Source of the DNA: an uncultured Bacilli bacterium
GTDB lineage: Bacteria > Bacillota_I > Bacilli_A > RFN20 > CAG-449
Assembly (NCBI GenBank): GCA_947588815.1
Contig: CANQAG010000004.1
Coordinates: 26,193-90,192 of the forward strand
DNA: 64,000 nucleotides
Direction: 5' to 3'
Of this stretch, positions 2,115 through 59,728 are shown piece after piece. Within the stretch, counting starts at the first letter, position 1; the number at the start of each line of letters is the position of its first letter. Made by a program: the position numbers and the translations under genes. The notes under the pieces are model-generated. The model was not told where the DNA came from and did no database searches. It saw only the letters and a program-made list of their open reading frames with translations.

Positions 2115-3224
2115 ATGGAACCAAATGCTGAAAAAAATATAAAAAAAGCGCCATATAAAAATTGGGCTTTAGCGGTTTTTGTTGCATTACTAGTCGTTCT
2201 TTTTGTATTGGGAAGAGAATTATTTTCACGTTTCACAGCGGAAAATATTTATGTCTTTATTATTGTTACAGTTTTAGTCGGTTATGGGTTTAATGCGATT
2301 ATTTATGAATTGGGTCGTTTGATTATGGGAAAGATTTGCGGCTATCGCTTAGTGTCTTTGAATCTGTTTGGTATAACTATAAGAAGAAAAGATGGCAAAT
2401 TAAAACTAGGTCTAGAAGCTTTCGAAAATTTGGGTGGAAAGACCGTGATGGCGCCTAAAAGTGATAAAGCTAAACCGATTCCATATCTTTTAGGTGGAGG
2501 AATATTATATCTTATTATTTCCTCGATTCTTTTCACAATAGCTATGGTTTACAAAAATTTGGAAGATTTCAGTTGGGGAATTGTCGTTGTTATTGCTATT
2601 GGAATGGTTTTGAATGTGTATTATCTTCTTCCTTTAAGAATGGATGTTTATACCGATGGTTTTTTAATTAGAATACTTTTGTCACAAAAAGGCGCTAAAA
2701 AAGCCTTTCATGAAAATCTTCTTCAAGAAGAAGCCTTATATGAAGATATCGAAAAATTGCAATTATATGAATACGATGATTATTACAATACTTTCGAAGC
2801 ACAAAGTTTAATTTATCGATTATATTATTTTGTTCATCGCGAACAATATGATCATGCAAAAGAGGTTGCAGATCAAATTATCGAAGTCGAATCTTATCTT
2901 CTTGACGATTCGATAATCGAAGCGTACGCTATTAAACTTTTCTTTCTTTTTCTCTCTAAAAGCGGAGAGGAAGTCGGAACATATTATTGGGATTTAAAAA
3001 AATCGATTAGAAACTCCTTGGCTTCTTCTAATAACCTCACTACGTTAAAATCAGCTTTAGGAATTGCCGGATTAGTTGATAGTAACTACGATGAATATGA
3101 ATATATTTTACATCGTTATGATAAGTTACAAAAAAAATATCCGCTTCAAACCCGTAAAGACGATGAAGTCAAAATGATCGATACTTTGATTGCAAAAATA
3201 AAAAAGGTTAACCCAAATTGGTAA
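2115..3224 (+). CDS. hypothetical polytopic membrane protein (N-terminal TM bundle, soluble C-terminal alpha-helical domain)
   Basis: 369 aa; several hydrophobic helices in first 200 aa; YELGRL where M50 site-2 proteases have HExxH, so not called a protease. Confidence 0.45.
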   Translation: MEPNAEKNIKKAPYKNWALAVFVALLVVLFVLGRELFSRFTAENIYVFIIVTVLVGYGFNAIIYELGRLIMGKICGYRLVSLNLFGITIRRKDGKLKLGLEAFENLGGKTVMAPKSDKAKPIPYLLGGGILYLIISSILFTIAMVYKNLEDFSWGIVVVIAIGMVLNVYYLLPLRMDVYTDGFLIRILLSQKGAKKAFHENLLQEEALYEDIEKLQLYEYDDYYNTFEAQSLIYRLYYFVHREQYDHAKEVADQIIEVESYLLDDSIIEAYAIKLFFLFLSKSGEEVGTYYWDLKKSIRNSLASSNNLTTLKSALGIAGLVDSNYDEYEYILHRYDKLQKKYPLQTRKDDEVKMIDTLIAKIKKVNPNW

Positions 3225-5963: not shown

Positions 5964-6200
5964 TTATTTCTTAGGATTTAATTGATTTTGAATAACGACG
6001 TTTTGTGAGTTAAGCGAAAGTAATACTTGGCCGAGTAATTCAAAAAAATTCCCTAAAGATCCTTGTTCATCGATATCTATTTCTTGCCCGATTACAAATC
6101 CAAGTGAAAAAGCTAGAATCGTTAATTCGTTTGCGGAAAGACCAAATAAAAAAGAACTGAAACTTTTTAATGAATGGTCATTTAAGTTATTTTGATTCAT
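5964..6200 (-). CDS. small hypothetical protein (78 aa from ATG 6200; ORF-track extension to 6263 lacks RBS)
   Basis: AAAGGAGTG 8 nt upstream of ATG at 6200 (minus strand); no recognisable domain. Confidence 0.4.
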   Translation of the reverse strand: MNQNNLNDHSLKSFSSFLFGLSANELTILAFSLGFVIGQEIDIDEQGSLGNFFELLGQVLLSLNSQNVVIQNQLNPKK

Positions 6201-6282
6201 CGTAGCGGACACTCCTTTATTTATGAGAGAAAAGTCGATAATTTTTATAAAAACATCGTACAAATTACGTAAATATGAGGTA

Positions 6283-8069: not shown

Positions 8070-8084
8070 TTGAATCAAAATTAA

Positions 8085-8112
8085 AAAGCGATGCTTGATA
8101 CATCGCTTTTTT
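8085..8112. terminator. rho-independent terminator (bidirectional; convergent with 8132 minus-strand gene)
   Basis: aaagcgatg-cttgata-catcgcttt hairpin then TTTT. Confidence 0.6.
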
Positions 8113-8131: not shown

Positions 8132-11100
8132 TTAAGCTTTAAGAAGCATATTATCGCGTTTTAAAATTATTTGTTTTTCTGCCAATTCATCAATAATGCC
8201 GTTAAGTCGAGTTATAGAAGACATCCTAGCTTTCTGGTAACCAAGAGAAAGCAACATCATTTTAACGACCACATCAGCTTCGATTTCTTTTAAATTATTG
8301 ACGATTTTGATAATTCCGGTTTTTAATTCGATATCGGTAATGCTATCGATATCACGGAATTCTTTGGTGTTCCTTGCTACAATTCTAAATTCAATATTGT
8401 GATCGATTAAATATATAAAATCATCTTTAATCGCAATTTTTTGTTCTTTTACCATCTCTTCAAGCAAATCATTGATTTTATCTTGATTTTCGAAAAGATT
8501 TAAAAGTTCGTCTTTTTTAAGTGGTGCAGAAAGTTCAATGATTTTTTCAACGAGGTTTTCTAATGTCTTATGAGCTTTATCGTCAATCATATAGAAAACT
8601 TCGCGAGGAGAAAGATAATGCTTAAATAACACTTCCATCGCAAGTTTACTCGTGGTTTTTTTAGATGGAACGTCACCTAGCTCATCGGAGTTGATGACAA
8701 TAAAGTGTTTTAATGCCATATATTCCTCTTCATTCATATAGAAGGAAAGAGGAATTACACGATAAGGAACGTAACCTAAATCTCTGATTTCGTTATCGGT
8801 TTTTTCAATTGATTGCAAGGCGGCCTCTAAGGAGTTAGATGATAATTTATCGATAATGATACCGGTCGCCATTTTCGATTTAGCCGGGCGTACTAAAATA
8901 TCGATATAACCGCTTTTGGTTTTTGCGTCTTTTACAATTTCAAAGCCATCTTGCTCTAATCGATTGTAAAGATAAGATTTAAATTCACTTGAACGACGCT
9001 CGTTGTTCAACCCTTTAGCGTCATATGAAGTAGAAATATATTCTACTTTTTCATAACATTTCGAAGTGGCAAACAAGAAAGAGTTTTTATCAAGTAAAGG
9101 TTTTCGCGCGTCTTCAAAGTTTCCTTTTAAATAATCGTCGTCAAACACAACGAATTGGTCGCCAAGAGCAAGAATGCCAATAGCATCTTTCATTAAAGTC
9201 TCTTTACTTGGTAAAACAAAGACGCAATCGAAATGATAAATCTCATTTGTTAACAAGGAAGGAACTTCTTCAATCGGACACAAAAGTAATGATTTAAGGT
9301 TATAGATGCTTTCTCTTGCTTCATATGCGATTGTTTTTAATGGTACGCTTGAAGGATTTTCATAAGCGGAAGTTATAAATGGCAACTCATAATTTTTGAG
9401 GTTTAAACCATTGTTGTGCAAATATTTTTGAATATTGTTTACAAAGAGATTTTGCATTGCCTCAATCCGTTTGCAACTAAGTTCTTCGTTTTGCTTCATC
9501 TCTTCTAAGAAATTTGCAAACGAGAAGTCAGTTAGCATTGAATTTTGGCTAATCGTGTAGTCGATTAATTGACGATAAAAAGCTTTTAAAAATATTTGTT
9601 CACTTTCTTTGACCAAATCCAATTCGAATAATTCATCGCCTAATTTATCGATAAGTTTGTTGAGCTTAATTCTGGCTAAATAGAAATCAAGATATTCATT
9701 GATAGAGGCAAAATGCAAAGAAGCATCGACCATTTTGTTATAGAATTCTTTTAAGTCCATTTCACCGAAGTTACAAAGCTTTTTGTCGAAATAACTTTGC
9801 AAAATTTCGACACTATCTAAAGTAGTATTAAACTCACGTTGCAAGAAATATCTAAAATCTAACAAAGCCTTCATAAGGACAGTATCATCAAATTTTGTGA
9901 CATCAAACTTTGAAATATCGACATTGTGCTTAGTAAGGTATTTGACATTACGGCGGTATTCTTTGACTTGAGTCAATAATTGATCGATTTTAGTAATATC
10001 AAAATTGCGATCTGAATAATATGCTTTAAATGATAATGGCAAGTTTTGAATCTTATCTTCAATTTGTCTTTCTCTAGTGCGATAAAGATCTAAAGAAATC
10101 ATCATATCGACCATTTTGTTTTCGGCTAAACGAGAAGATTTTTTGAATTTGGTATTCACTAATGTGACATCTTTAGGAGTGTATGATGATGTGACAAACA
10201 ATTGAATCATCTCATTTGGAATTTTAAAAACATCGGAAGTGTATGTATCTTCTAATTCACGAGCAAGATTAGCGTTTTCATCAATCGCTTTTTGAATCTC
10301 TAACACTAAATTATACGATTGTTGAAGATTTTCGTCTTTAAACCAACTTAAAGGTGGAAGATTTTCATTGTCGCTTAAAATAGCAACCATATTAAATTCG
10401 GCTTTTAATTGTTTCAATGTTTTTGGCATTGGGAATCCAAAGCGGTGATGTAAATTGTTGATATGAGATTTTAAAATCTTCAATTGTTCGGAAAGAAAAA
10501 TAATGTTTTCTTGCAAAGGTTTATAATCCTCTTTGACCATTCTTTTTCTTGAAAAGCCATAGAATGGGTGATCTTTAATTGAATTCTTAATGCTTTGAGC
10601 TGAATTTTTAAAATCACCGATGGCATTTATATATTCATCGATTTTTTGATTGTCAATATGAGCGATATTGGGAATTGTTATTGAAAGATCGGGGTATTTA
10701 TTAAAACGATAATATTGCTCTAGCATTTTATTTAATGACAAATTCATCGGAGGATTGCTAACTCGAAGGCTATTAATTATCTGTTTATATTTGTTTTTAA
10801 GATCGTAATATTCTTTGATTGATTCTCCGAGATCTTCAGTAGATAAGCCTTGGCGACTACGATAACTATCGTAATCGGCGAGTGTTTTTAAAAGAACTTT
10901 CTTATCTGTGGAAACTGAGTTGAAATCTAAATAATAAGGAGCCATCGATGAATTTTCAATCGTTTCCTTCAAACGTTGATATTGCGCTTGATTTTCATAA
11001 ACGACAAGAGTTTTGCTTCCGTTTAAAAGGAAAGCTTCTAAAGAGTTCTTCAATAAGTGAAGTTCGTTAATTTTAGACGAAGTTCGGATATACAAATTGT

Positions 11101-11884
11101 CGCGATCAGCAATTTTTTTAACGATTCGATATTCATCGAAATCTGTATCTAGCAACGATAAGTAACGGGAATTAATTCTTGTTTTTTGATTTTTTCTAAA
11201 ATTAAAAAATTCACTATTGAAATAAGTGATGTTTTTAACGAGATTATTGGAAGCGATTTTTTCATTATTGTTTAAAATGAACATTCTTTTATCGTGAAAA
11301 GTTAAATCAAAGTTTGCTAAAAAACATCCATTGTTGACAGACCAACTTTGAGCTTTGATTTTAACTGCGACAAAATAGAGATATTCGCCTAATGAGAAAT
11401 TTTTATCAAGAGGATAGTTTAACGAAATTTTAAATTCTTTAAGTAATTTATGGATTAGGGCATCGTTAAGTCTGACTTCTTTATTGATACTCGAGATGTA
11501 GTAACTACCATTTTCTTTTGTGATTTTTACTGGAACAAAAACTAAAGGAGCGGTTAAAACCTTTTCTCTAGCATAGTCGCTATAGTAATCTAAAAGTCCA
11601 AAAGTAGCATATAAAGTATGAACTGAATGTGCATTGTACCACTTTTCTGATTTATCAGCTAATTTTAATAAAACCGAATCGAGATCTTTGCCTTCAAAGT
11701 AGCTGGCGGAAATCTTAATTTTTTCTTCTTTCAAAAGACTTTCGAAAATTTTTTCATAGTCTTCATTTGTTATTCTAACGGAATTTTGACTTGTCAATTT
11801 ATAGTCGACAACCATGCTATCGATGACATCTTTTTCTAATTGGTCAACCCAAGGGTTTACATTTTTGTTATCCATAATAATCAC
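8132..11884 (-). CDS. large (1250 aa) helicase-related protein with degenerate ATPase motifs and a restriction-endonuclease-like C-terminal region (DUF4011 / Upf1-like SF1 / DUF3320-type architecture suspected)
   Basis: No intact Walker A (closest LNGSKT); motif-II-like block FDCVFVLPSKET...ALGDQFVVFDDD lacks DEAS/DEAD; GYIDILV...IIIDK REase-like block; long uninterrupted ORF with good codon usage. Confidence 0.5.
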   Translation of the reverse strand: MIIMDNKNVNPWVDQLEKDVIDSMVVDYKLTSQNSVRITNEDYEKIFESLLKEEKIKISASYFEGKDLDSVLLKLADKSEKWYNAHSVHTLYATFGLLDYYSDYAREKVLTAPLVFVPVKITKENGSYYISSINKEVRLNDALIHKLLKEFKISLNYPLDKNFSLGEYLYFVAVKIKAQSWSVNNGCFLANFDLTFHDKRMFILNNNEKIASNNLVKNITYFNSEFFNFRKNQKTRINSRYLSLLDTDFDEYRIVKKIADRDNLYIRTSSKINELHLLKNSLEAFLLNGSKTLVVYENQAQYQRLKETIENSSMAPYYLDFNSVSTDKKVLLKTLADYDSYRSRQGLSTEDLGESIKEYYDLKNKYKQIINSLRVSNPPMNLSLNKMLEQYYRFNKYPDLSITIPNIAHIDNQKIDEYINAIGDFKNSAQSIKNSIKDHPFYGFSRKRMVKEDYKPLQENIIFLSEQLKILKSHINNLHHRFGFPMPKTLKQLKAEFNMVAILSDNENLPPLSWFKDENLQQSYNLVLEIQKAIDENANLARELEDTYTSDVFKIPNEMIQLFVTSSYTPKDVTLVNTKFKKSSRLAENKMVDMMISLDLYRTRERQIEDKIQNLPLSFKAYYSDRNFDITKIDQLLTQVKEYRRNVKYLTKHNVDISKFDVTKFDDTVLMKALLDFRYFLQREFNTTLDSVEILQSYFDKKLCNFGEMDLKEFYNKMVDASLHFASINEYLDFYLARIKLNKLIDKLGDELFELDLVKESEQIFLKAFYRQLIDYTISQNSMLTDFSFANFLEEMKQNEELSCKRIEAMQNLFVNNIQKYLHNNGLNLKNYELPFITSAYENPSSVPLKTIAYEARESIYNLKSLLLCPIEEVPSLLTNEIYHFDCVFVLPSKETLMKDAIGILALGDQFVVFDDDYLKGNFEDARKPLLDKNSFLFATSKCYEKVEYISTSYDAKGLNNERRSSEFKSYLYNRLEQDGFEIVKDAKTKSGYIDILVRPAKSKMATGIIIDKLSSNSLEAALQSIEKTDNEIRDLGYVPYRVIPLSFYMNEEEYMALKHFIVINSDELGDVPSKKTTSKLAMEVLFKHYLSPREVFYMIDDKAHKTLENLVEKIIELSAPLKKDELLNLFENQDKINDLLEEMVKEQKIAIKDDFIYLIDHNIEFRIVARNTKEFRDIDSITDIELKTGIIKIVNNLKEIEADVVVKMMLLSLGYQKARMSSITRLNGIIDELAEKQIILKRDNMLLKA

Positions 11885-12069
11885 CTATCTTTTTTATTAG
11901 TTTACCATAGGTAAAAAAAAAATAAAACCGCTCTAAGCAAAAAAGTTTGTCTTATTGCCAAAAGTTTTATTCAATCGATTCATTTTTTAGGAAACCAGTC
12001 ATTAAAAATGATGATGCTAGTGGTATTTTTTAAGGAGTATGGTATAATGTAAAAAACGAGGAAGTTACT

Positions 12070-12645
12070 ATGAAGCCCTTTAAAAGAAGAAGAAAAAAAG
12101 GTCTAAATCTTTCATCCCTGCAAGGGGAATTAATAAAAATTAGAAATTATAGCGTAAGAGACGCTGTTATGCTATCGGAACTTTTATCGAGCGAAAAAGT
12201 AAAACAAAGATTTTTTGCCGCTGAAAAAATCGCTGTAGATGAAATCGCAGTAAAATTAGTTGAAATGGTACCGCTATATGACAATGAAAATCTTTTGGTT
12301 TGGGCAATTGCGGATGTTAAGGACAGCAAAAAAATATTCGGTCAAATTTCTATAAAAAATTTCTATCCGGAAGATCGTATTTGTAGCATTGATTTTTGGA
12401 TAGGTGAAGAATATTGGGATAGTGACATTTTGGAAGAAACATTAAAAATTGTAACAAAATATCTGCTTGAAGATCAAAAGCTTCATCGTGTTCAAATTAA
12501 ACTAAAAACTGAAGATGAAACCTCTAAAAATATTTTAATTAAATGTGGCTTTCAGTTTGAAGGAGTTCAACGCGGTAGAAGATATTTTAACGGAAAGTAT
12601 TATGATTTAAATACTTATGCCATATTAGAAACTGATAGGAGATAA
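12070..12645 (+). CDS. GNAT-family N-acetyltransferase (RimJ/RimL-like)
   Basis: 191 aa; C-terminal HRVQIKL...ENxxSxxLLxKxGFxxEG...R pattern of Acetyltransf_3; GAGGAAG RBS. Confidence 0.75.
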   Translation: MKPFKRRRKKGLNLSSLQGELIKIRNYSVRDAVMLSELLSSEKVKQRFFAAEKIAVDEIAVKLVEMVPLYDNENLLVWAIADVKDSKKIFGQISIKNFYPEDRICSIDFWIGEEYWDSDILEETLKIVTKYLLEDQKLHRVQIKLKTEDETSKNILIKCGFQFEGVQRGRRYFNGKYYDLNTYAILETDRR

Positions 12646-26582: not shown

Positions 26583-26636
26583 TCCCAAGGTTTAGCATAA
26601 GGCGTTATAGAATTGTTAGAAAATATGGGAGATCGT

Positions 26637-29600
26637 ATGGAACTAATAGATAATACATTAAAAACATTACGAGATGATATGGCAGGTGAAATAAAGAAAG
26701 GCAGTAAATTATCCATTGCGGCCGCTTGTTTTTCTATTTATGCATTTCAAGAGTTGAAAGAAAAATTACAAGATATAGATGAACTTCGTTTTATCTTTAC
26801 ATCACCTGCGTTTGTTACGGAAAAAGCAAAAAAGGAAAAACGAGAGTTTTATATTCCGAGACTTAATCGAGAACGTAGTCTCTATGGTACAGAATTTGAA
26901 GTGAAACTGAAAAATGAACTTAATCAAAAAGCGATAGCAAAAGAATGCGCTGACTGGATAAGAAAAAAGGTCACTTTTAAATCGAATGTCACCAATGAAA
27001 ATATGATGGGTTTTATCAACCTTGACGACAAAAACTATATGCCTATCAATGGATTTACTACTATTGATTTGGGATGTGAAAAAGGAAATAATGCTTATTG
27101 CATGATTCAAAAAACAGGTATGCCTTATGCAAAAGCGTACATGGATATTTTTGAAAAACTTTGGAACGATCAAAATAAACTTCAAGAAGTTACAGATGAA
27201 GTTATTAATAGTATTACAGCAGCATATAACGAAAATTCTCCCGATTTCATTTATTTTGTTACCCTTTACAATATCTTTAATGAATTTCTTGAAGATATAT
27301 CTGAGGACTTGTTGCCAAATGAAGCATCTGGTTTTAAGGATAGTAAGATTTGGAATATGCTTTACAATTTTCAAAGAGATGCAGCTCTTGCTATTATCAA
27401 TAAGTTGGAAAAGTTTAACGGCTGTATTCTTGCTGATAGTGTAGGGTTAGGTAAAACTTTTACGGCTCTCGCCGTTATCAAGTATTATGAAAATAGAAAT
27501 AAATCTGTTCTTGTCCTTTGCCCGAAAAAATTAGCCAACAACTGGAATACATATAAAGACAATTATGTAAATAATCCTATTGCGGAAGATAGGCTTCGCT
27601 ATGACGTCCTCTATCATACGGACTTAAACCGTACACAAGGAACTTCTAATGGCCTTGATTTAAGTAGGCTGAATTGGGGAAATTATGATCTAGTTGTAAT
27701 AGACGAATCTCATAATTTTCGTAACGGAGGAAAAGTAATAGAAAATCCTGATGATGACGATAAGGAAAATAGATATGTAAAACTTTTAAAAAAAGTTATC
27801 CGTGCCGGTGTGAAAACAAAGGTTCTTATGTTATCTGCAACACCGGTTAATAATAAATTTCTTGATTTGAAAAATCAACTTGCACTTGCCTATGAAGGCG
27901 ATACTAATTTAATTGACGAAAAATTGAATACTTCTCGAACCATTGATGAGATATTTAAAAACGCTCAAAGAGCTTTTACTACTTGGAGCAAATGGAAACC
28001 GGAAGAAAGAACTACCGAAAATTTGCTTCGGATGTTAGACTTTGATTTCTTTGAAGTTCTTGATAGCGTGACGATTGCTCGCTCCCGCAAGCACATTCAA
28101 AAATATTATGACACTACAGACATTGGTAAATTTCCTACAAGATTAAAACCAATTTCTCTTCGCCCACAACTTACTGATTTGAAATCGGCCATCAACTATA
28201 ATGAGATATTTGAACAGTTAATGCTTCTAACTCTTACAATTTATACGCCATCTCATTTTATCTTACCTAGTAGGATGGAAAAATATGCTGAAATTTTCAA
28301 AGATAACCGAGTAAATATTGGGTTTACACAAGCAAATCGTGAACAAGGTATTCAACGTTTAACAGCGATTAATTTAATGAAGCGCATGGAAAGTTCGGTA
28401 TATTCGTTTAAACTTACGCTTAATAGAATAAAAGATTTAATTAGCAGCACACTTCAATCAATAGATAATTATGACCATTCACAATCATTAACTTTTGAAT
28501 TAACCGATATTTCAAACATCGATGAATTTGATGATGAGGATCAAAATAACGATGAAATCTTTTCTATTGGAAAAAAGATTAAGATTGACATTGGTGATAT
28601 GGATTATAAATCGTGGCGCGATAGTCTTGCAAAAGACGCTGAAATTTTAGAACTTCTTTCATTAATGATTGAGGATATTACGCCTAAACATGACGCTAAA
28701 CTTCAAGAACTTTTTAGGGTGATTAAAGATAAATTTGCACAGCCTATAAACGATAACAATAAAAAAATTATTATTTTTACGGCTTTTACGGATACTGCAA
28801 AGTATTTATACGATAATGTGAGTGAATATGTTCTTTCTAATTATGGATTAAATACGGCGATGATTACCGGATCGATCGAGGGTCGTACTACGGTTCCTAA
28901 GTTGCGTTGTGATTTAAATACAGTGTTGACGTGTTTTTCCCCGATTTCAAAGAACAAACAACTTCTTATGCCAAATGACAATACCGAAATAGATATTCTG
29001 ATTGCAACGGATTGTATCTCTGAAGGACAAAATTTACAAGACTGCGACTATCTTATTAATTACGATATTCACTGGAATCCGGTACGAATTATTCAAAGAT
29101 TTGGCCGTATTGATCGTATTGGGAGTCACAATCAATATATTCAACTTGTAAATTTTTGGCCGGATGTTTCACTTGATGATTATATCAATTTAAAAGCAAG
29201 AGTTGAAACTCGTATGAAAATCGTTAATTTGACAGCAACAGGTGATGACAACATTCTTAGTGATGAAGAAAAAACAGATTTGGAATATCGTAAAGCCCAG
29301 CTTAAGCGTTTGCAAGACGAAGTTGTGGACATCGAGGATATGACAAGTGGAATATCAATAATGGATTTGGGATTAAATGAGTTTCGGTTGGATCTTTTAG
29401 AATATATGAAATATAACGATAATCTTGATAAGACTCCATTTGGGCTTCACGCCGTTGTGCCGGCAAATGATGAAATGCCGGCGGGAGTTATTTATGTCTT
29501 GAAGAATCGATCAAACAATGTAAATATCAATAATCAAAATCGGTTACATCCGTTTTATATGGTGTATATCTCTAATGAAGGTAAAGTGATATGCGATCAT

Positions 29601-29885
29601 CTTTCACCTAAAACAATGCTAGATAAGATGCGCTATCTATGCAAAGGTAAAAATGAACCTTATAAGGATCTTTGTAATAAGTTTAATCAAGAGACAAAAG
29701 ACGGGAAGGATATGCATAAATTTTCAATTCTACTCGGTAATGCAATATCCTCTATTATAGAGATAAAAGAAGAAAGCGATATCGATTCGTTCCTTAGTGG
29801 TGGACATGTTAGTTTTATCGACGCTACTATCAAAGGTTTGGATGACTTTGAACTTATTTGCTTTTTGGTTGTGAAGGAAAGATAA
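26637..29885 (+). CDS. SNF2-family (SF2) ATPase/helicase with ~270-aa N-terminal non-helicase domain
   Basis: Walker A ADSVGLGKTFTA, motif II VVIDESHNFRN, helicase-C block ILIATDCISEGQNLQDCDYLINYDIHWNPVRIIQRFGRIDRIGS; start placed at ATG 26637 (GGGAG 5 nt upstream; TTG 26613/ATG 26625 possible). Confidence 0.85.
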   Translation: MELIDNTLKTLRDDMAGEIKKGSKLSIAAACFSIYAFQELKEKLQDIDELRFIFTSPAFVTEKAKKEKREFYIPRLNRERSLYGTEFEVKLKNELNQKAIAKECADWIRKKVTFKSNVTNENMMGFINLDDKNYMPINGFTTIDLGCEKGNNAYCMIQKTGMPYAKAYMDIFEKLWNDQNKLQEVTDEVINSITAAYNENSPDFIYFVTLYNIFNEFLEDISEDLLPNEASGFKDSKIWNMLYNFQRDAALAIINKLEKFNGCILADSVGLGKTFTALAVIKYYENRNKSVLVLCPKKLANNWNTYKDNYVNNPIAEDRLRYDVLYHTDLNRTQGTSNGLDLSRLNWGNYDLVVIDESHNFRNGGKVIENPDDDDKENRYVKLLKKVIRAGVKTKVLMLSATPVNNKFLDLKNQLALAYEGDTNLIDEKLNTSRTIDEIFKNAQRAFTTWSKWKPEERTTENLLRMLDFDFFEVLDSVTIARSRKHIQKYYDTTDIGKFPTRLKPISLRPQLTDLKSAINYNEIFEQLMLLTLTIYTPSHFILPSRMEKYAEIFKDNRVNIGFTQANREQGIQRLTAINLMKRMESSVYSFKLTLNRIKDLISSTLQSIDNYDHSQSLTFELTDISNIDEFDDEDQNNDEIFSIGKKIKIDIGDMDYKSWRDSLAKDAEILELLSLMIEDITPKHDAKLQELFRVIKDKFAQPINDNNKKIIIFTAFTDTAKYLYDNVSEYVLSNYGLNTAMITGSIEGRTTVPKLRCDLNTVLTCFSPISKNKQLLMPNDNTEIDILIATDCISEGQNLQDCDYLINYDIHWNPVRIIQRFGRIDRIGSHNQYIQLVNFWPDVSLDDYINLKARVETRMKIVNLTATGDDNILSDEEKTDLEYRKAQLKRLQDEVVDIEDMTSGISIMDLGLNEFRLDLLEYMKYNDNLDKTPFGLHAVVPANDEMPAGVIYVLKNRSNNVNINNQNRLHPFYMVYISNEGKVICDHLSPKTMLDKMRYLCKGKNEPYKDLCNKFNQETKDGKDMHKFSILLGNAISSIIEIKEESDIDSFLSGGHVSFIDATIKGLDDFELICFLVVKER

Positions 29886-29888
29886 CTT

Positions 29889-30494
29889 ATGCTGGGATTA
29901 CCAAAAGCGACGGAAGTAAATAAACAGCTTCCAAAAAGTGCGATTTATTCAAAGTTCAAAATGAATATGACAGCCAAAGACCGAATTGATCGAGATATTT
30001 CACGAATTTACATCACTAATGAAGTAACTGCATCAAAAATCAACTTGAAAGATGGAGCGGAAATAAAATCCTTTTTCGTAATGTCAGTACTACTTAAACG
30101 TAAAGACTTTAATGAAAAAAATATGATTGCCCTTTCTAAGTTGATAATGCAAAATATAGTGTTAGTTCTTGAATATAAAAGTGAAGGCAAAATAATGGTG
30201 TGTCGAAATGGGAAACTTTTACAGACCGAATGGCAACCAAAGGAAAAACTTTTGCTTGAAATCAAAGGTTTGAACCTTGATATGGTATGGGATAATATCA
30301 TCATTCAAATAGGTGGATTGACTATTACATCTGGCAATACCATAGATGAACAAATAGATATTGAAGAGCAAAAAAACAAACTTCAAAAAGAGATTGATAA
30401 ACTTGAAAAACTCGCACGAGTTGAAAAACAACCTAGAAAGAAGTTTGAGATGCACCGACAAATTTTGAAATTAAAGCAGGAGGAATCGGAATGA
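29889..30494 (+). CDS. DUF4391-like small protein (helicase-associated), translationally coupled to SNF2 gene
   Basis: 201 aa; starts 3 nt after SNF2 stop with AAGGAAAG RBS; size/charge pattern and coiled-coil C-term resemble DUF4391 partners of SNF2 helicases (assignment from memory, unverified). Confidence 0.5.
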   Translation: MLGLPKATEVNKQLPKSAIYSKFKMNMTAKDRIDRDISRIYITNEVTASKINLKDGAEIKSFFVMSVLLKRKDFNEKNMIALSKLIMQNIVLVLEYKSEGKIMVCRNGKLLQTEWQPKEKLLLEIKGLNLDMVWDNIIIQIGGLTITSGNTIDEQIDIEEQKNKLQKEIDKLEKLARVEKQPRKKFEMHRQILKLKQEESE

Positions 30495-30925
30495 ATGAAA
30501 AATTTTATGAACTCTGTTATAAAATCTTGCATCGGTATTTAAATCTTCCCGATGTGGCAGATACATTTCGAAGCATACTAAAAGGAATAGATTACATAAA
30601 AAAATTTCCATGGGATATAAATGATTTTTTATGTAAAAAAAATGAAATTATCTCTTATATTCAAGATGTGCGCTGTAAAAATATAATTGATGGATATAAC
30701 GAAAATCCATATTTATTAACTCCTACACCATTTAGCAAAAAGCTTTCTGACACAAATCAAAATGAATTATATTCGAATCTAATCGGAGAAATTCCAAGAC
30801 TTATTCTTAAAGGAATGCATCAAGTTATTAAAAATTTATATAACATTAAAGATGATAATGAACTTACAGAAGAATTAGTACAAGAAAACATTACTGTTTT
30901 AATGAAATACAAACTAGTAAAATAG
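30491..30925 (+). CDS. hypothetical protein (144 aa), translationally coupled (ATGA overlap)
   Basis: AGGAGG 7 nt upstream; no recognisable domain. Confidence 0.5.
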   Translation: MNEKFYELCYKILHRYLNLPDVADTFRSILKGIDYIKKFPWDINDFLCKKNEIISYIQDVRCKNIIDGYNENPYLLTPTPFSKKLSDTNQNELYSNLIGEIPRLILKGMHQVIKNLYNIKDDNELTEELVQENITVLMKYKLVK

Positions 30926-30939
30926 GGAGGATAAAGGCG

Positions 30940-32832
30940 ATGAATAAACTTAAAATGCAAACTATAAACAAAGCAGATGAGAATTTCAAGAGATTGACGG
31001 AAATGTTTCCGAATGCTATTACAGAAACGATAGATGAAAACGGCGAAGTTGTTCGTGCTATTGACAAAGATGTTCTTATGCAAGAAATCTCTTGCAAAGT
31101 AGTTGAAGGGCGCGAAGAACGTTATCAATTTACTTGGCCGGACAAGAGAAAATCTGTTCTGCTTGCAAATGCGCCTATTAACAAAACACTCCGTCCTTGT
31201 CGTGAAGAAAGCGTGAATTTTGACAACACCGAAAACCTTTATATTGAGGGTGATAATCTTGAAGTGTTAAAGCTTTTGCAGGAAACTTATCTAGGCAAAA
31301 TTAAAATGATATATATTGATCCACCTTATAATACGGGTAATGACTTTGTGTATGAGGATAATTTTACTCAAAGCACTGATGAATATCTTGCAAATAGCGG
31401 ACAATATGACGATCAAGGCAATCGGTTATATCAAAATACAGAAAGTAATGGTAGATTTCATACTGATTGGCTGAACATGATATATCCAAGGTTGAAACTA
31501 GCAAAAGATTTGCTCCGAGAAGACGGTATGGTCTTTATTAGCATTGACGATAACGAACAAGAAAACCTAAAGAAAATTTGTGATGAAATATTTGGAAGTG
31601 CTAATTTTGTTGCTAATTTTATATGGAAAAAAACAAGCAACCCAAATTCAACAGGAAACAATATTGGTGTTGAACACGAATACATTATTTCATATTCGAA
31701 AAGTAATAAGTATATTTTAAATTCTTTACCATTGGATAAAGAAGATTTTGATAAATATATAGGTAAAGATGAATTCTTAGAAGAAAGAGGACCATATAAA
31801 CTTGTTGGTTTAAATAAGACGGGAACTGTAAATGATTTAAGAGCTAATTTAATGTATGATATTGAAGCACCAGATGGTAGTATAATTAAACCAAATCCAA
31901 GATGGAGATGGTCATTAGAAAAATTTAACAAATGCAAAACAGAAAATAGAATAGTATTTATTAAATATAATGAAAAATGGAGCGTCTCGTATAAACAATA
32001 TTTAAATGAAGATACTGAAGGCAATATTGTAGCTCGAGGAAAGTTAATTAAAACAATTTTTAGTGATAATGGTAGAACAACTGATGGTACATTGGAAATA
32101 AATAGTTTATTAGGAAAGGGTTATTTTGATTTTCCAAAACCAAAAGATTTAATAAAAAAACTACTTTTCATATCTTCGAAAAAAAATGATATTATCCTCG
32201 ATTTCTTTTCCGGCTCTGCTACAACCGCTCATGCTGTTATGCAACTCAATGCCGAAGATGGAGGCAACCGAAAGTTTATTATGGTACAGCTTCCCGAAGT
32301 ATGCGATGAAAAAAGTGAAGCCTATAAAGCAGGTTATAAGAATATTTGCGAAATCGGAAAAGAACGTATCCGTCGAGCAGGTAAAAAAATCAAGGATGAA
32401 AATCCACTTACAACGCAAGATCTTGATATTGGATTCCGTGTTTTGAAGTGTGATACATCAAATATGAAAGATGTTTACTATAATCCCAAAGATATCGAAA
32501 TTTCATTGTTTGAAAACGATGATAACAATATCAAAGAAGATCGCACACCGGAAGATTTGTTGTTCCAAGTAATGCTCGATTTAGGAGTGTTGCTTTCTTC
32601 TAAAATTGAAGAAAAAGAAATTGCCGGAAAGAAAGTATTTAATGTTGCTGATGGTTTCCTCATTGCTTGCTTTGATGAAAATGTAACAGAAGAAACGATA
32701 AAAGAAGTTGCTAAGCAAAAACCATATTATTTTGTCATGCGAGATAGTTCTATGGCAAACGACAGCGTAGCTACCAACTTTGAGCAAATTTTTGCTACAT
32801 ATAGTCCGGATACGGTAAGGAAGGTGCTGTAA
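30940..32832 (+). CDS. mod: Type III restriction-modification Mod subunit, N6-adenine DNA methyltransferase
   Basis: 630 aa; IYIDPPYNTGNDF (DPPY motif IV), FxGSGTT-like AdoMet motif FFSGSATTAHAV; GGGAGG RBS. Confidence 0.9.
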   Translation: MNKLKMQTINKADENFKRLTEMFPNAITETIDENGEVVRAIDKDVLMQEISCKVVEGREERYQFTWPDKRKSVLLANAPINKTLRPCREESVNFDNTENLYIEGDNLEVLKLLQETYLGKIKMIYIDPPYNTGNDFVYEDNFTQSTDEYLANSGQYDDQGNRLYQNTESNGRFHTDWLNMIYPRLKLAKDLLREDGMVFISIDDNEQENLKKICDEIFGSANFVANFIWKKTSNPNSTGNNIGVEHEYIISYSKSNKYILNSLPLDKEDFDKYIGKDEFLEERGPYKLVGLNKTGTVNDLRANLMYDIEAPDGSIIKPNPRWRWSLEKFNKCKTENRIVFIKYNEKWSVSYKQYLNEDTEGNIVARGKLIKTIFSDNGRTTDGTLEINSLLGKGYFDFPKPKDLIKKLLFISSKKNDIILDFFSGSATTAHAVMQLNAEDGGNRKFIMVQLPEVCDEKSEAYKAGYKNICEIGKERIRRAGKKIKDENPLTTQDLDIGFRVLKCDTSNMKDVYYNPKDIEISLFENDDNNIKEDRTPEDLLFQVMLDLGVLLSSKIEEKEIAGKKVFNVADGFLIACFDENVTEETIKEVAKQKPYYFVMRDSSMANDSVATNFEQIFATYSPDTVRKVL

Positions 32833-33854
32833 TGGAAAATAAGATACAAAGTGAGATTCTTATTTATCAAACTGAAAAAGGAAATACAAAACTTGATGTA
32901 CGTCTAGAAGATGAAACTGTTTGGCTAACGCAGGCACAACTAGTAGAACTTTATCAAACTACAAAATCGAATGTAAGTGAACATATTAAGCATATCTTTG
33001 AAGATGGTGAATTGGATGAAACATTAGTTGTTCGGAATTTCCGAACAACTGCTTCTGACGGAAAAAAATATAACACAAAATATTATAACTTAGACATGAT
33101 AATTTCACTAGGATATCGTATTCGTAGTATAACGGCAACGCATTTTAGAAAATGGGCGACAGAACGTTTAAAAGAATATATTATCAAAGGTTTCACAATG
33201 GATGATGAGCGTTTAAAAGGGAATGGCGGCGGACAATATTGGAAAGAGCTGCTTGCAAGAATTCGTGATATTCGCTCATCTGAAAAAGTACTTTATCGTC
33301 AAGTACTTGATCTTTACGCTACAAGCGTTGATTACGATCCAAATAGTGAAATATCGATTGAATTTTTCAAAATTGTGCAGAACAAATTACATTATGCAGC
33401 TCATGGTCATACTGCTGCGGAAGTGATCTATGAACGAGCTGACGCTAATAAGCCATTTATGGGGATGAAAAGTTTTAAAGGAGATTTTCCGACTCTTGCC
33501 GATGCGAAGATTGCTAAAAATTATCTTAATGAGGATGAACTAAAAGTGTTAGGTAATCTTGTTTCGGGATATTTTGATTTTGCAGAAATTCAAGCAATCC
33601 GAAAGCACCCGATGTATATGAAAGATTACATAGAGAATCTTGATTCTATTCTTTCCGCGACTGGCGAAAAACTTTTACTTAATGCTGGAAAAATCAGTCA
33701 CCAAGAAGCTATAGATAAAGCAATAGCGGAATATAGAAAATATCAAGTGCAAACCCTTTCTCCTGTCGAAGAAGTGTATCTAGAAATGGTAAAAAATACA
33801 GAAAAGACAATTAAAAAACTTACGAAAAATAGTGAAAAAGGAGAGCAAAAGTGA
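32832..33854 (+). CDS. RhuM-family (virulence protein RhuM/Fic-DOC-like) protein embedded between mod and res
   Basis: 340 aa; N-terminal EILIYQTEKGNTKLDVRLEDETVWLTQAQLVELYQTTKSNVSEHIKHIF typical of RhuM family; start overlaps mod stop (TAATG). Confidence 0.8.
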   Translation: MENKIQSEILIYQTEKGNTKLDVRLEDETVWLTQAQLVELYQTTKSNVSEHIKHIFEDGELDETLVVRNFRTTASDGKKYNTKYYNLDMIISLGYRIRSITATHFRKWATERLKEYIIKGFTMDDERLKGNGGGQYWKELLARIRDIRSSEKVLYRQVLDLYATSVDYDPNSEISIEFFKIVQNKLHYAAHGHTAAEVIYERADANKPFMGMKSFKGDFPTLADAKIAKNYLNEDELKVLGNLVSGYFDFAEIQAIRKHPMYMKDYIENLDSILSATGEKLLLNAGKISHQEAIDKAIAEYRKYQVQTLSPVEEVYLEMVKNTEKTIKKLTKNSEKGEQK

Positions 33855-36800
33855 AATTCAATTTTAAAATACAACAGTATCAAACTGACGCTGTGAATGC
33901 AGTTGTTAAAGTTTTTGCCGGTCAGGGTTTTAGGGAAAAAATAAACTATATTCGCGATACTGGAAAACAGATTGCTAATGATCATCAGCAAACACAACTT
34001 ATTTTCGATAATAATGAAAAATACGATTGGTATGATCCGTTAAACGATACTGGCTATAAAAATGCACCTTTGGAACTTTCCGATGAAGAACTTTTAAGTA
34101 ATATTAAAAACCTGCAAATCGAAAATAATATTAAACAATCGGTTTCACTGAATAAAGAATTGGGGCAATGTTCTCTTGATATAGAGATGGAAACCGGTAC
34201 TGGCAAAACATATGTGTATATTAAGACGATGTTTGAACTAAACAAGCTGTACGGATGGAGCAAGTTTATTGTCGTTGTACCCTCCATCGCTATCCGTGAA
34301 GGAGTGAAAAAGTCCTTTGAAATCACGATAGATCATTTTATGGAATATTATGGTAAAAAAGCTCGTTTTTTCGTTTACAATAGTAGTAACTTATCACAGC
34401 TAGATAACTTTTCTCAAAGTTCCGGTATCAATGTGATGATTATTAACACGCAAGCTTTTGCTTCCTCTTTAAAGGAAGACGGAAAAAGTAAAGAAGCCCG
34501 TATTATTTATTCTAAACGAGATGAATTTGGTTCCCGTCGTCCAATTGATGTAATCAAAGCAAATAGACCTATTATCATTTTGGATGAACCGCAAAAAATG
34601 GGTGGTGATGTCACACAAAAGGCACTTAAAAACTTTAATCCACTTTTTTCTCTTAATTACTCTGCTACTCACGCTAAACAACATAATCTCATATATGTGC
34701 TTGACGCTCTCGACGCTTTCAACGAGCGCCTCGTGAAGAAAATTGAAGTAAAAGGTTTTGAAGTTAAAAATTTTCGAGGAACGGATGGCTACCTCTATTT
34801 AGAGAAAATTGTCCTTTCTTCAAAAAATCCGCCGATGGCAAAAATCGAACTTGAAATCGGATATAATAAGTCCATAAAACGTGAGACGAGACTATTAGGT
34901 GTCGGGGATGATCTATATTATGTCTCGCAAAAGATGGAACAATACAAAGGGTTTACGATTTCCGAAGTAGATCAGTTGCGTGGAACTGTTACATTTACTA
35001 ATGGTAATGTCATAGCTGTTGGGGAAATAGTAAACGATGTGTCTGAGAAAGATATGCGTCGTATTCAAATAAGAGAAACGATACTTTCTCATTTCGAAAA
35101 AGAAGAAAAGCTTTTTAATATGGGAATTAAATCTTTGTCGTTATTTTTTATAGATGAAGTAGCTAAATATCGCCAATATGATGAAGATGGTAACGAGATA
35201 TTAGGCGAATATGGAAAAATATTTGAACAAGAATATATTAATGTTCTCAATGAGTACATCACCATATTTGATACACCTTATCAAAAATATCTCCGCTCTA
35301 CTTGTAGCGATGTTTCATCTGTACATAAAGGTTATTTCAGTATTGATAAAAAGACCGGCAGAAGTATTGATAGTCAATTAAAAAGAGGCAGTGAGTTTTC
35401 AGATGATATTTCTGCTTATGATTTGATACTCAAAAACAAAGAACGTTTGCTGTCATTTGACGAACCTACAAGGTTTATCTTTTCTCACTCAGCGCTCCGT
35501 GAAGGTTGGGATAATCCCAATGTGTTCCAAATTTGCACTTTGAAACATTCTGATAGTAATACCACAAAGCGTCAGGAAGTTGGTAGAGGACTGAGACTTT
35601 GTGTCAATCAATTCGGCAACCGAATGGATGTTGAAACTCTTGGAGACAATGTTCACGACGTGAACCTCCTTACCGTAATTGCTAGTGAAAGTTATAAGAC
35701 CTTTGTGTCTGATTTACAAAGTGACATCAAGGCGGTTCTTTATGATAGACCGACAGTAGCAACGAGTGAATATTTTGCTGGGAAATGTGTAAAAGTTGGT
35801 GATTGTTTCACTACTATTGACGATAAAATTGCTAATAAACTTGAATATTATCTCATACAAAACAAGTATGTTAATATAGAACGCAAGGTGACAGATAAAT
35901 ATCGCGAAGATGTGGCAAACGGAACATTAGTACCACTTCCAGATGATCTTGCTCCAATGGCAGAGGGTATTCATAAGCTTATTCAATCCGTCTATGACGA
36001 CAGTATGTTGGAAAGTATGTTTACTGATGGTCACGAGTCTAAAATTATGGACAATCCGCTGAATGAAAATTTTGCTAAAAAAGAATTTCAGGCACTTTGG
36101 AATGAAATCAATCGTAAGTATGCCTATACAGTTAGCTTTGATAGTGAGGAACTGATAAAAAAAGCGATCGACTACATCGATCAGAAACTATTTGTTTCTG
36201 AATTACAATACACAACGACTATCGGAAGGCAGAAAGACAAGATGAACGAAAATGAAATTGAAAACCTAACTTCGTTCAGCAACGAAAAAACGAGAACCCA
36301 AACGTTGAAACATACTGAAGCAAGCAACGTAAAATATGATCTTATTGGAAAAGTAGCGGAAGGTACTATTCTTACAAGAAAAACTGTAGCAAGGATATTG
36401 AAAGGAATTAGGAAAGATAAGCTTAAGATGTTTAGCTATAATCCTGAAGAATTTATATCAAAAATAATAAAACTCATTAAAGAGCAGAAAGCTACAATGA
36501 TTGTTGAACACATTTCCTACAATCAAATTGATGGAAAGTATGATAGCACGATTTTTACTGCTGAAAAAACTACAGTTAGATTTGATAAGGCATATCTTGC
36601 CAAAAAAGCGATTCAAGATTATGTATTTATAGATGGAACGGCAGAAAATAGTATTGAAAGAAGATTCGCTAAAAGTTTAGATGAAGCTGATGAAGTTTGT
36701 GTCTATGCTAAGCTACCGAGAACTTTCCAAATACCGACACCAGTGGGTAACTATTCCCCTGATTGGGCGATAGCTTTTTATGAAGGTAAAGTAAAACATA

Positions 36801-36973
36801 TTTTCTTTATTGCTGAAACGAAAGGTACAATGGAAAGCTTGAATCTGCGACCAATTGAACAGGCTAAGATTTCATGTGCAAAAAAGTTGTTTAACGAAAT
36901 GTCTACAAGCAAGGTAAAGTATCATGAAGTTGATAGTTATACAAAATTGCTTAATGTAATAGAGATGCTTTAA
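33851..36973 (+). CDS. res: Type III restriction enzyme Res subunit (SF2 helicase + C-terminal PD-(D/E)xK nuclease)
   Basis: 1040 aa; Walker A ETGTGKTYV, DEPQ (motif II ILDEPQK), C-terminal PDWAIAF...IAETKG nuclease block; GTG start at 33851 with AAGGAGAG RBS overlapping RhuM stop (GTGA). Confidence 0.9.
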   Translation: MKFNFKIQQYQTDAVNAVVKVFAGQGFREKINYIRDTGKQIANDHQQTQLIFDNNEKYDWYDPLNDTGYKNAPLELSDEELLSNIKNLQIENNIKQSVSLNKELGQCSLDIEMETGTGKTYVYIKTMFELNKLYGWSKFIVVVPSIAIREGVKKSFEITIDHFMEYYGKKARFFVYNSSNLSQLDNFSQSSGINVMIINTQAFASSLKEDGKSKEARIIYSKRDEFGSRRPIDVIKANRPIIILDEPQKMGGDVTQKALKNFNPLFSLNYSATHAKQHNLIYVLDALDAFNERLVKKIEVKGFEVKNFRGTDGYLYLEKIVLSSKNPPMAKIELEIGYNKSIKRETRLLGVGDDLYYVSQKMEQYKGFTISEVDQLRGTVTFTNGNVIAVGEIVNDVSEKDMRRIQIRETILSHFEKEEKLFNMGIKSLSLFFIDEVAKYRQYDEDGNEILGEYGKIFEQEYINVLNEYITIFDTPYQKYLRSTCSDVSSVHKGYFSIDKKTGRSIDSQLKRGSEFSDDISAYDLILKNKERLLSFDEPTRFIFSHSALREGWDNPNVFQICTLKHSDSNTTKRQEVGRGLRLCVNQFGNRMDVETLGDNVHDVNLLTVIASESYKTFVSDLQSDIKAVLYDRPTVATSEYFAGKCVKVGDCFTTIDDKIANKLEYYLIQNKYVNIERKVTDKYREDVANGTLVPLPDDLAPMAEGIHKLIQSVYDDSMLESMFTDGHESKIMDNPLNENFAKKEFQALWNEINRKYAYTVSFDSEELIKKAIDYIDQKLFVSELQYTTTIGRQKDKMNENEIENLTSFSNEKTRTQTLKHTEASNVKYDLIGKVAEGTILTRKTVARILKGIRKDKLKMFSYNPEEFISKIIKLIKEQKATMIVEHISYNQIDGKYDSTIFTAEKTTVRFDKAYLAKKAIQDYVFIDGTAENSIERRFAKSLDEADEVCVYAKLPRTFQIPTPVGNYSPDWAIAFYEGKVKHIFFIAETKGTMESLNLRPIEQAKISCAKKLFNEMSTSKVKYHEVDSYTKLLNVIEML

Positions 36974-48429: not shown

Positions 48430-50331
48430 ATGTGCCTTCATAAAGTAAATACAATTAAAGAATTATATGATTTATATGATAATATAAAAGGATTATTAGA
48501 TATAAAAAAAGGCATGGCTGATGTTTCACGAAAAATTGAAATTTCAGTTTGTGGTGGAACCGGCTGCCATGCATCGCAAAGCGAAAAATTAAAAGATGAA
48601 TTGATTCGCTACGCTAAAGAATATGGCGTTGAGGATAAAGTTAAAATCTCTATCACGGGATGCTTTGGATTTTGTGAAAAGGGTCCGATTGTAAAGATCT
48701 CTCCAGATCATACCTTTTATATTAAAATTCATCCAGAAGATGCAGAACGAATCATTAAAGAGCATGTGGTTGAAGGAAAATTAATTGAAGATTTCCTTTA
48801 TGTTAATCCGGCAACTTCCGAAAAAATACGTTCGCAAGATAATATTCCCTTTTATAAGAAACAACATCGTGTTGCCTTACGAAATTGTGGCTTAATAAAT
48901 CCTGAAGTGATTCAAGAATATATTGCCAATCGTGGCTTTTTAGCATTAGCCAAAGTATTAGAAACGATGACGCCACAACAAGTGATTGACGAAATGAAAA
49001 AATCAGGACTTCGTGGCCGTGGCGGTGGCGGATTCTTAACTGGCATGAAGTGGGAATTTGCTTCTAAATACCAAAATGAAAAAAAATATGTGATATGTAA
49101 CGCTGATGAAGGAGATCCCGGAGCTTTTATGGATCGTTCGATTCTTGAAGGAGATCCATATAGTGTCGTTGAAGCGATGATTATTGCCGGTTACGCTATC
49201 GGCGCTAATGAGGGAAATGTCTACATTAGAGCAGAATATCCATTGGCGATTGAAAGATTATCGATTGCTATCGCTCAAGCAAGAAAGATGGGATTCTTAG
49301 GAAAAAATATTTTAGGAACTAATCATAGTTTTGATATTTTCATTAAATATGGCGCTGGAGCGTTTGTTTGCGGTGAAGAAACAGCATTGATTTCTTCGAT
49401 TGAAGGCAATCGTGGTGAACCGAATGTAAAACCGCCTTTTCCGGCAGAAGCAGGTCTTTATAAAAAACCGACGATTGTCAACAATGTTGAAACTTTAGCC
49501 AATGTTCCGGTAATTTTTCTTGATGGCGCAGAAGAGTTTGCAAAGATTGGAACCGAAAAATCAAAAGGAACAAAAGTTTTCGCTTTAGCTGGTAAAATCA
49601 ATAATGTCGGTCTTGTTGAAGTACCGATGGGAATTACTTTAAGAGAAATCATATATGATGTCGGTGGCGGTATTAAAGACGGACACGAATTTAAAGCCGC
49701 TCAAACCGGAGGCCCTTCGGGTGGTTGTATCACTAAAGAACATCTTGATATTCCAATCGACTTTGATAACTTATCTGCGATTGGATCGATGATGGGATCA
49801 GGCGGACTTATTATTATGGATGACCGCAACTGTATGGTTGATATCGCTAAATTCTATTTGGAATTTACGGTCGAAGAATCTTGTGGTAAATGTACTCCAT
49901 GTCGTATCGGTAATAAGCGTTTGTTAGAAATTTTAACAAAAATTACTAAAGGTGAAGCCGACTTATCTGATTTGGATCGCCTAGAGGAACTTTCCAATAT
50001 CATTAAGGATACTTCCTTATGTGGTTTAGGACAAAGTGCTCCTAATCCGGTATTATCAACCCTTAACTATTTCCGCGATGAATATATTGCTCACGTAAAG
50101 AACAAATATTGTCCTGCTAAAGTTTGTCGTGCTTTAACTAAATATGAAATCGATGAATCAAAGTGTATCGGATGTGGCAACTGTGCGCGTAATTGTCCGG
50201 TAAGTGCGATTGAAAAAACTGATAAGCCGGCAAAAAATCCGCGATTATTCGTATATAAAATCAAGGGCAACGATTGTATTAAGTGTGGCACTTGCGAATC
50301 TAAGTGTCCGGTTAAGGCAATTTCGCTTTAA
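48430..50331 (+). CDS. NuoF-like NAD(P)H-binding flavoprotein subunit with extra Fe-S domains (HydB/HndC-type)
   Basis: 633 aa; GRGGGGF FMN/NADH motif, C-terminal 2x CxxCxxCxxxCP ferredoxin motifs. Confidence 0.9.
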   Translation: MCLHKVNTIKELYDLYDNIKGLLDIKKGMADVSRKIEISVCGGTGCHASQSEKLKDELIRYAKEYGVEDKVKISITGCFGFCEKGPIVKISPDHTFYIKIHPEDAERIIKEHVVEGKLIEDFLYVNPATSEKIRSQDNIPFYKKQHRVALRNCGLINPEVIQEYIANRGFLALAKVLETMTPQQVIDEMKKSGLRGRGGGGFLTGMKWEFASKYQNEKKYVICNADEGDPGAFMDRSILEGDPYSVVEAMIIAGYAIGANEGNVYIRAEYPLAIERLSIAIAQARKMGFLGKNILGTNHSFDIFIKYGAGAFVCGEETALISSIEGNRGEPNVKPPFPAEAGLYKKPTIVNNVETLANVPVIFLDGAEEFAKIGTEKSKGTKVFALAGKINNVGLVEVPMGITLREIIYDVGGGIKDGHEFKAAQTGGPSGGCITKEHLDIPIDFDNLSAIGSMMGSGGLIIMDDRNCMVDIAKFYLEFTVEESCGKCTPCRIGNKRLLEILTKITKGEADLSDLDRLEELSNIIKDTSLCGLGQSAPNPVLSTLNYFRDEYIAHVKNKYCPAKVCRALTKYEIDESKCIGCGNCARNCPVSAIEKTDKPAKNPRLFVYKIKGNDCIKCGTCESKCPVKAISL

Positions 50332-50345
50332 GGAGGTAGTAAAAA

Positions 50346-56806: not shown

Positions 56807-56819
56807 GGAGGCAGGAACG

Positions 56820-57512: not shown

Positions 57513-57537
57513 CCTGTAACGGAAAGGAGAAATAAAG

Positions 57538-59723: not shown

Positions 59724-59728
59724 TTAGA

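Follow-up and report, generated by a model that had tools for sequence, protein, structure and literature searches.

We report a gene from an uncultured gut Bacilli bacterium (CAG-449) whose product is a pseudo-helicase and probably a pseudo-nuclease, retained under strong purifying selection and likely to act non-catalytically, as a binding scaffold or sensor. The gene lies on the minus strand, at 8132..11884, of the 64,000-nucleotide stretch of contig CANQAG010000004.1 analysed here (the window), and the features within it are all on that strand; residues are numbered by the 1250 codons of its listed open reading frame (ORF), in which the real start is Met4. From its sequence, the protein clearly descends from a PDC-S37-type protein combining a DUF4011 domain, a superfamily 1B (SF1B) helicase, a Vsr-like nuclease and winged helices, and with its P-loop, its other helicase motifs and its entire second RecA domain (RecA2) gone it is incapable of canonical ATP hydrolysis and of translocation along nucleic acid.

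A Pfam scan placed the protein in the DUF4011 superfamily (PF13195, aa 26-147, 57.7 bits, the gathering score being 22.2), the whole domain spanning aa 4-213 (11246..11875), and the signature FGxLxY / APLxxxPV / ExxLN (W, FG, P..P, E..N) was common to this protein and its active relatives. The same scan gave no match to AAA_11 or AAA_12, and a match to the MTES_1575 nuclease family (aa 968-1056) of 30.9 bits, below the gathering threshold of 38.2. The PDC-S37 profile of PADLOC matched with an E-value of 2.8e-52 and 176 bits, limited to profile positions 100-969 of 1550, whereas true members align end to end (positions 1-1544, 1096-1574 bits). As the nearest active homologues (P0015 and P0038-P0040, about 1550 aa) are themselves such end-to-end PDC-S37 proteins, this match makes descent from the helicase family clear, and profile-profile alignment with active relatives by hhalign (probability 100%, E 4e-95) was collinear from N- to C-terminus over 1259 columns. 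The NCBIfam profiles for ProA (NF058533) and Hhe (NF042953) fell far below their curated cutoffs, at 159.7 bits versus 1500 (profile positions 688-1334 with aa 285-915) and 73.9 bits versus 2000 (positions 360-736 with aa 280-649), respectively. Searches of PDB sequences with a profile of the clade and with a DUF4011-only profile returned no significant match. The first-pass annotation of this DNA, made from the letters alone, had proposed a layout of DUF4011, Upf1-like SF1 helicase and restriction-endonuclease-like C-terminus; the DUF4011 domain and the helicase descent stand, but the RecA2/AAA_12 part of that layout has gone.

Helicase motifs were compared column by column in a MAFFT alignment of 20 non-redundant members of the clade to which the protein belongs with 45 active proteins, and hhalign was concordant. 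The Walker A motif GPPGTGKS was present in 45/45 active proteins and no clade member had it; in this protein TSSKINEL (T268-L275) aligns there, within a P-loop remnant RTSSKINELH (R267-H276; 11057..11086) that corresponds to QGPPGTGKSQ. All three glycines are gone and the position of the Walker lysine is occupied by glutamate, with clade residues at the P-loop columns of T/C/A, N/D/S, S/N/D, x, x, N, K and x. Walker A had been annotated as degenerate at LNGSKT (aa 287-292; 11009..11026). The degeneracy was right and the place was not: the true equivalent lies 19 residues upstream, and LNGSKT corresponds by homology to the A(D/N)GKK turn that leads into the following beta-strand, aligning with an A(D/N)GKKVLFVS strand kept in both groups. 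Motif II, DEASQ in the context (V/I)(I/V)FDEASQ in 45/45 active proteins and absent from the clade, is LPSKE here (L891-E895, within VFVLPSKE, 9200-9223), in agreement with the earlier reading of LPSKET in place of DEAS/DEAD. The GD of motif III, again in 45/45 active proteins and none of the clade, is FD (in FDDDYL). A regular-expression scan of the clade (P0001-P0013, P0024-P0037) found neither Walker A nor DE[AS] in any member, and among more distant homologues spanning the P-loop region Walker A was present in every one.

The loss is thus wider than the degenerate ATPase motifs first recognised, extending to motif III and to RecA2. The latter, about 215 aa running from WHYRSR to RRLNVAxTRA and containing motifs IV-VI, has no counterpart in the clade, where only 47 aa separate motif III from the nuclease fold, against an average of 261 aa among active relatives; in this protein a 47-aa linker (aa 919-965; 8990..9130) stands in place of the deleted domain. 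No RecA2-coding sequence was found when active proteins were searched across the 64-kb window by tblastn, and a split gene supplying RecA2 in trans was rejected for the window on this basis and also for the adjacent genes at 17 loci.

The nuclease-like block, which had also been called degenerate, proved to be so at most of the positions that active relatives conserve. A Vsr/DUF559-like PD-(D/E)xK fold is present (aa 966-1068; 8681..8989), in which the alpha1 Glu of active relatives is Lys in 20/20 clade members (K969), the beta3 Glu is I/M/F (I1010 here), and the His is lost (N1017 here), as are the Arg of the AR.RD motif (L1023 here), the RxR motif and the Trp of RIWS. A conserved K/R has become a clade-invariant Glu (E1020), and S1018 is also invariant. 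These replacements make it very unlikely that the protein cuts DNA in the manner predicted for its relatives.

Structures were predicted by AlphaFold2 for two fragments, from alignments of 20-21 sequences, with mean values of the predicted local distance difference test (pLDDT) of 86.6 (aa 4-960) and 83.8 (aa 900-1250). In the N-terminal model the DUF4011 alpha/beta domain is followed by a linker predicted to be disordered (pLDDT <50) that bears an invariant YFNSEF, the instance here of a clade-specific Y-x-N-S-E-F motif (aa 221-226; 11207..11224). A six-stranded RecA1-like alpha/beta core is then modelled as broken into an N-terminal half (aa 239-333; 10886..11170) and a C-terminal half carrying the remnants of motifs II and III (aa 862-918; 9131..9301) by an all-helical insertion of about 525 aa (aa 334-861; 9302..10885) with very long, coiled-coil-like helices. 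The first strand (LYIRT) appears to enter its helix after a two-residue loop, and the phosphate-binding loop is absent from the model. The Vsr-like fold is predicted to be intact (pLDDT mostly >80), and behind it lies a tandem winged-helix region (aa 1069-1250; 8135..8680) homologous to the C-terminus of active relatives. Foldseek matches to SETX, Sen1 and UPF1 (probability 0.87-0.97) were weak though specific, with TM scores of only about 0.15, owing to the multidomain query; a match to AddA (4cei_A; E 6.4e-4, TM 0.11) was likewise weak. A relationship to SMC proteins was considered and set aside, the N-terminal model mostly retrieving coiled-coil proteins (dynein, SMC) in a manner judged generic.

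The gene is functional and under strong purifying selection. The ratio of nonsynonymous to synonymous substitution rates (dN/dS) against two 93%-identical orthologues was 0.046 and 0.050, equal to that of the flanking housekeeping genes (0.03-0.07). By domain it was 0-0.09, with 0.05 in the Vsr-like domain and the lowest values in the YFNSEF linker (dN 0 against orthologue L001) and the helical insertion, which had the lowest dN/dS among folded domains and the most clade-invariant residues (HPFYGF, F.SIN.Y and others). Conserved positions occur in all domains, with YxNSEF, H276, Y296, K969 and E1020 as new clade invariants. Codon usage is normal, as had been noted: an index similar to the codon adaptation index was 0.700 against 0.713 +/- 0.024 in the other genes of the window, and GC content at third codon positions was 0.295 against 0.281 +/- 0.030. 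Selection for a non-enzymatic role such as scaffold or sensor, proposed in the first-pass annotation, is therefore supported in that dN/dS establishes the selection, while the role itself we infer. As a separate observation, the dS of the gene against L001 and L002 (0.65-0.76) exceeded the values of most genes beside it (0.14-0.59, with GNAT as high as 0.75) at the same dN/dS, which could reflect a weaker constraint on codons, low expression or recombination in the past.

A phmmer search of 1.84 billion representatives found only 17 proteins at E <=1e-30, four of them fragments and 13 complete or almost complete (1144-1306 aa), below which E-values fell sharply to 1e-27, where proteins of 1500-2100 aa start. 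Loss of Walker A, DE[AS] and RecA2 is common to all of the 20 or more members of this clade, further members taken from genomes being all intact ORFs without a P-loop. Over 25 orthologues, the most distant 29% identical, had intact ORFs, and in one 90%-identity cluster of 63 members all of the 15 members listed are 1265 aa long. The hosts are uncultured gut Bacilli, labelled as 'Mollicutes', Erysipelotrichaceae metagenome-assembled genomes or Firmicutes bacterium CAG:449, with two records labelled otherwise ('Azospirillum sp. CAG:239' and 'Acutalibacteraceae bacterium'), and public annotation of the clade reads 'DUF4011 domain-containing protein' and no more. Pseudoenzymes, dead helicase scaffolds and the DUF4011 superfamily are already known; a degenerate DUF4011 clade lacking RecA2 was not found described in the searchable literature, of which only six papers name DUF4011.

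In the window the gene is neighboured on one side by two DegV genes and a P-type ATPase gene and on the other by genes for a GNAT protein, a GT2 glycosyltransferase, TldD/PmbA (two genes) and EPSP synthase. Among 17 species-level loci the recurring neighbours were a divergent GT2 gene upstream (in 8), DegV downstream (in 8) and the ATPase (in 8), the remaining neighbours being housekeeping genes too, and synteny with GT2, DegV and the P-type ATPase persisted even where the identity of this protein drops to about 30%. The protein has diverged at roughly twice the rate of its neighbours, at 58% identity where they show 71-82% and at about 30% where GT2 and DegV show 56-61%. When loci were instead sampled by anchoring on GT2 orthologues, which is unbiased with respect to the presence of the DUF4011 gene, the gene adjoined GT2 in L019, L021/L022 and L025 (L024 was not syntenic); L020 and L023 kept the GT2-TldD/PmbA-EPSP synteny without the gene, and no relic of it was found there by hmmsearch. 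The picture is of one ancient acquisition or degeneration, followed by long vertical inheritance at one locus with occasional loss, the gene being dispensable in some lineages.

Taking these results together, we consider that the protein probably acts without catalysis, as a binding scaffold or sensor. In the ancestor of this small gut Bacilli clade the protein was stripped of its P-loop, of the DE pair of Walker B, of motif III and of all of RecA2, together with most of the nuclease-fold residues that active relatives conserve. Selection would have kept the DUF4011 domain, the RecA1 scaffold, the 525-aa helical arm, the Vsr-like fold and the tandem winged helices, and with them a new, invariant YxNSEF linker peptide, and since these are the parts retained, a non-catalytic action seems the most likely one. 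The retained recognition surfaces may bind nucleic acid, a protein partner or both. The same principle is known from RecC of RecBCD, and in part from AddB of AddAB, in which a dead SF1 helicase fold and a dead PD-(D/E)xK fold are kept as a DNA-recognising scaffold.

Several observations weigh against this reading. The likeness to RecC is one of analogy, no sequence or specific structural relationship having been found, and the two differ in that RecC keeps both RecA-like domains and belongs to an operon-encoded complex, whereas this protein lacks RecA2 and its gene has no conserved neighbour. Among the adjacent genes at the loci examined there was no constant partner or operon mate, and no ligand was found either, to indicate what the protein would bind. 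Net charge calculated for each domain marked none as strongly positive, leaving DNA binding without independent support. Acidic residues are kept in the nuclease fold, in beta2 (D995, 20/20 clade members) and in beta3 (D1012, 17/20), and some metal-dependent activity is possible. Finally, the function is not essential, because the gene is absent from the syntenic loci L020 and L023.

The alternatives are taken in order of the confidence we place in them. The first, which we regard as doubtful, is that the protein still serves in anti-phage defence though it has no motor, perhaps as a sensor of infection or a decoy that works by way of another effector. The named relatives are all defence or defence-candidate families, and evolution about twice as fast as that of the neighbours together with loss in some lineages is typical of accessory or immune genes; moreover, Hhe seems to react to what phage functions bring about, not to one phage protein in particular (10.1101/2024.10.10.617714). 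Against this, the position among housekeeping genes is held in about 20 species-level lineages, with no integrase, transposase or defence gene beside it and no conserved effector partner nearby, and the window's real restriction-modification cluster lies 15 kb away. Neither island context nor patchy horizontal distribution, the marks of the defence class, was found, the context being syntenic and housekeeping and a scan of viral contigs not finding the clade family. PDC-S37 is itself a candidate by prediction alone, PDC systems having been nominated through guilt-by-embedding (bioRxiv 10.1101/2024.01.29.577857). DUF4011 proteins may also be core genes, as in Pseudomonas aeruginosa, where one flanks a defence hotspot in every isolate examined.

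An ATP-independent nuclease with a remodelled Vsr-like active site, built from D995, D1012 and the clade-invariant S1018 and E1020, we hold to be unlikely. The well-modelled fold, the conservation of these residues and the low dN/dS of the domain would suit it, but the alpha1 Glu has become Lys and the beta3 Glu hydrophobic, the His, RxR and Trp have disappeared, and the match to MTES_1575 remains sub-threshold. For the paired charge reversals (E to K969, K/R to E1020), the exchange of a structural salt bridge seems a better account than catalysis.

A new structural role apart from nucleic acids, such as that of a coiled-coil cytoskeletal or envelope protein in Bacilli of reduced genome, perhaps tied to GT2, appears more improbable still. 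No other large region is as constrained as the helical arm, which is reminiscent of long coiled coils, and the pairing with the divergent GT2 gene is held in many loci. That pairing is, however, missing at the gene-bearing loci L004, L006, L008, L010-L014 and L016, and ancestral synteny, as its simplest explanation, was judged likelier than a functional link to GT2; no signal peptide or membrane segment was evident on inspection of the sequence by eye, no predictor having been run, and folds of DNA-binding type (Vsr-like, winged helix) have been kept under selection. As for a decaying relic or a normal helicase with overlooked motifs, both are refuted, the former, despite the splitting of the orthologue of Firmicutes bacterium CAG:449 (L017:8010-11623) into ORFs of 758 and 406 aa, by the dN/dS of 0.05 and the intact ORFs in orthologues and cluster members, and the latter by the profile-profile alignment, which locates the motif sites unambiguously and finds the motifs gone. 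A genuine frameshift or pseudogene would explain the L017 split, as would misassembly of an old scaffold.

The ORF is intact, as had been claimed, but the protein is 1247 aa long and not 1250. The GTG listed as its start (at 11884) lies within a Shine-Dalgarno sequence AGGTGA (11881..11886), 5 nt past which stands the ATG at 11875-11873, and all homologues begin at the Met encoded by this ATG; the coding sequence is therefore 8132..11875, of 1247 codons plus stop. Upstream, a divergent intergenic region (11876..12069) is shared with the GNAT gene (12070-12645, plus strand) and presumably holds the promoter. It contains on the minus strand a promoter-like site, TTTACA-17-AAAAAT (12053-12025), and an extended -10-like element, TGGTAAACT (11907-11899). 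Downstream, a bidirectional intrinsic terminator hairpin (AAAAAGCGATG...CATCGCTTTTT; 8083..8111) sits in the 62-nt spacer between the 3' end of the gene and the convergent DegV gene, which ends at 8069 and has this terminator in common with it. Of the terminators described on both sides by the first-pass annotation, the 3' one was thus found, whereas a terminator looked for in the 5' flank (11876..12069) was not, that side being the divergent region. The gene is accordingly a single-gene unit with its own terminator and a putative promoter region of its own.

Other features of the loci and of the window were recorded alongside. In L020 (1-5697, minus strand) the gene's place beside GT2 is held by four consecutive genes without a Pfam match (530, 568, 243 and at least 852 aa), which hmmsearch found unrelated to the DUF4011 clade, and in both L010 and L013 the gene is preceded upstream by a 527-aa gene without a Pfam match. 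Between the P-type ATPase gene and the first DegV gene of the window, a 99-aa ORF (5964-6263, minus strand) is conserved at five loci. With an identity of 99-100% to its counterparts in the two closest genomes it is more conserved than its neighbours, and it may be a real small protein. A 369-aa protein without a Pfam match (2115-3224, plus strand) adjoins the P-type ATPase in seven loci, with 25-27% identity in distant ones. About 15 kb from the gene, the restriction/defence cluster (26613-36973, plus strand) comprises an SNF2-type helicase (1090 aa), a DUF4391 protein, a 144-aa ORF, an N6/N4 DNA methylase (630 aa), a RhuM-family protein and a restriction subunit with ResIII and RE_endonuc domains (1040 aa). 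Further along the plus strand are a NuoF-like subunit and an [FeFe]-hydrogenase (48430-52079), a pair of the bifurcating-hydrogenase type, and a run of small ORFs of higher GC content (0.38-0.41; 56462-63675) that is probably a ribosomal-protein operon.

Compared with known systems, the protein is nearest to PDC-S37, with which it is collinear over the DUF4011 domain, RecA1, the helical insertion, the nuclease fold and the C-terminal winged helices. It differs in covering little more than half of that profile (176 bits against 1100-1570 for true members), in lacking the P-loop, DEAS, GD and RecA2, in the replacement of its nuclease residues and in its fixed housekeeping context, PDC-S37 being embedded in defence systems. 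With Hhe (NF042953 / PDLC02194) and ProA it has the DUF4011 domain and the helical insertion region in common, but these are proteins of 1800-1900 aa with complete motors and nucleases, and its 74 and 160 bits on their profiles are far below the curated cutoffs. From the Vsr / DUF559 / I-Bth0305I fold it is set apart by its sub-threshold score and by the replacement of the Glu, His, Arg and Trp positions of active DUF4011 proteins. Annotation in the style of defence finders could take this protein for an active system.

DUF4011 helicase–nucleases (Hhe, ProA, PDC-S37, the P. aeruginosa core gene) are widespread and their mechanism is poorly understood. A clade that has dropped the motor and most of the nuclease chemistry while holding the DUF4011 domain, helical arm and winged helices at a dN/dS of about 0.05 marks out the parts of the family that have a function of their own, and offers both a simpler protein in which to study recognition by this family and a clean bacterial case of pseudoenzyme evolution from a defence-type ancestor. 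More tentatively, we suggest as a possibility that an immune-type DUF4011 helicase–nuclease was domesticated once, in an ancestor of these gut Bacilli, into a motor-less, non-catalytic factor acting through its DUF4011 domain, helical arm and YxNSEF peptide. If this were true, the protein would be a natural separation-of-function variant, and the core activity of DUF4011 proteins would be the recognition of a nucleic-acid structure or of a partner, with helicase and nuclease as output modules.

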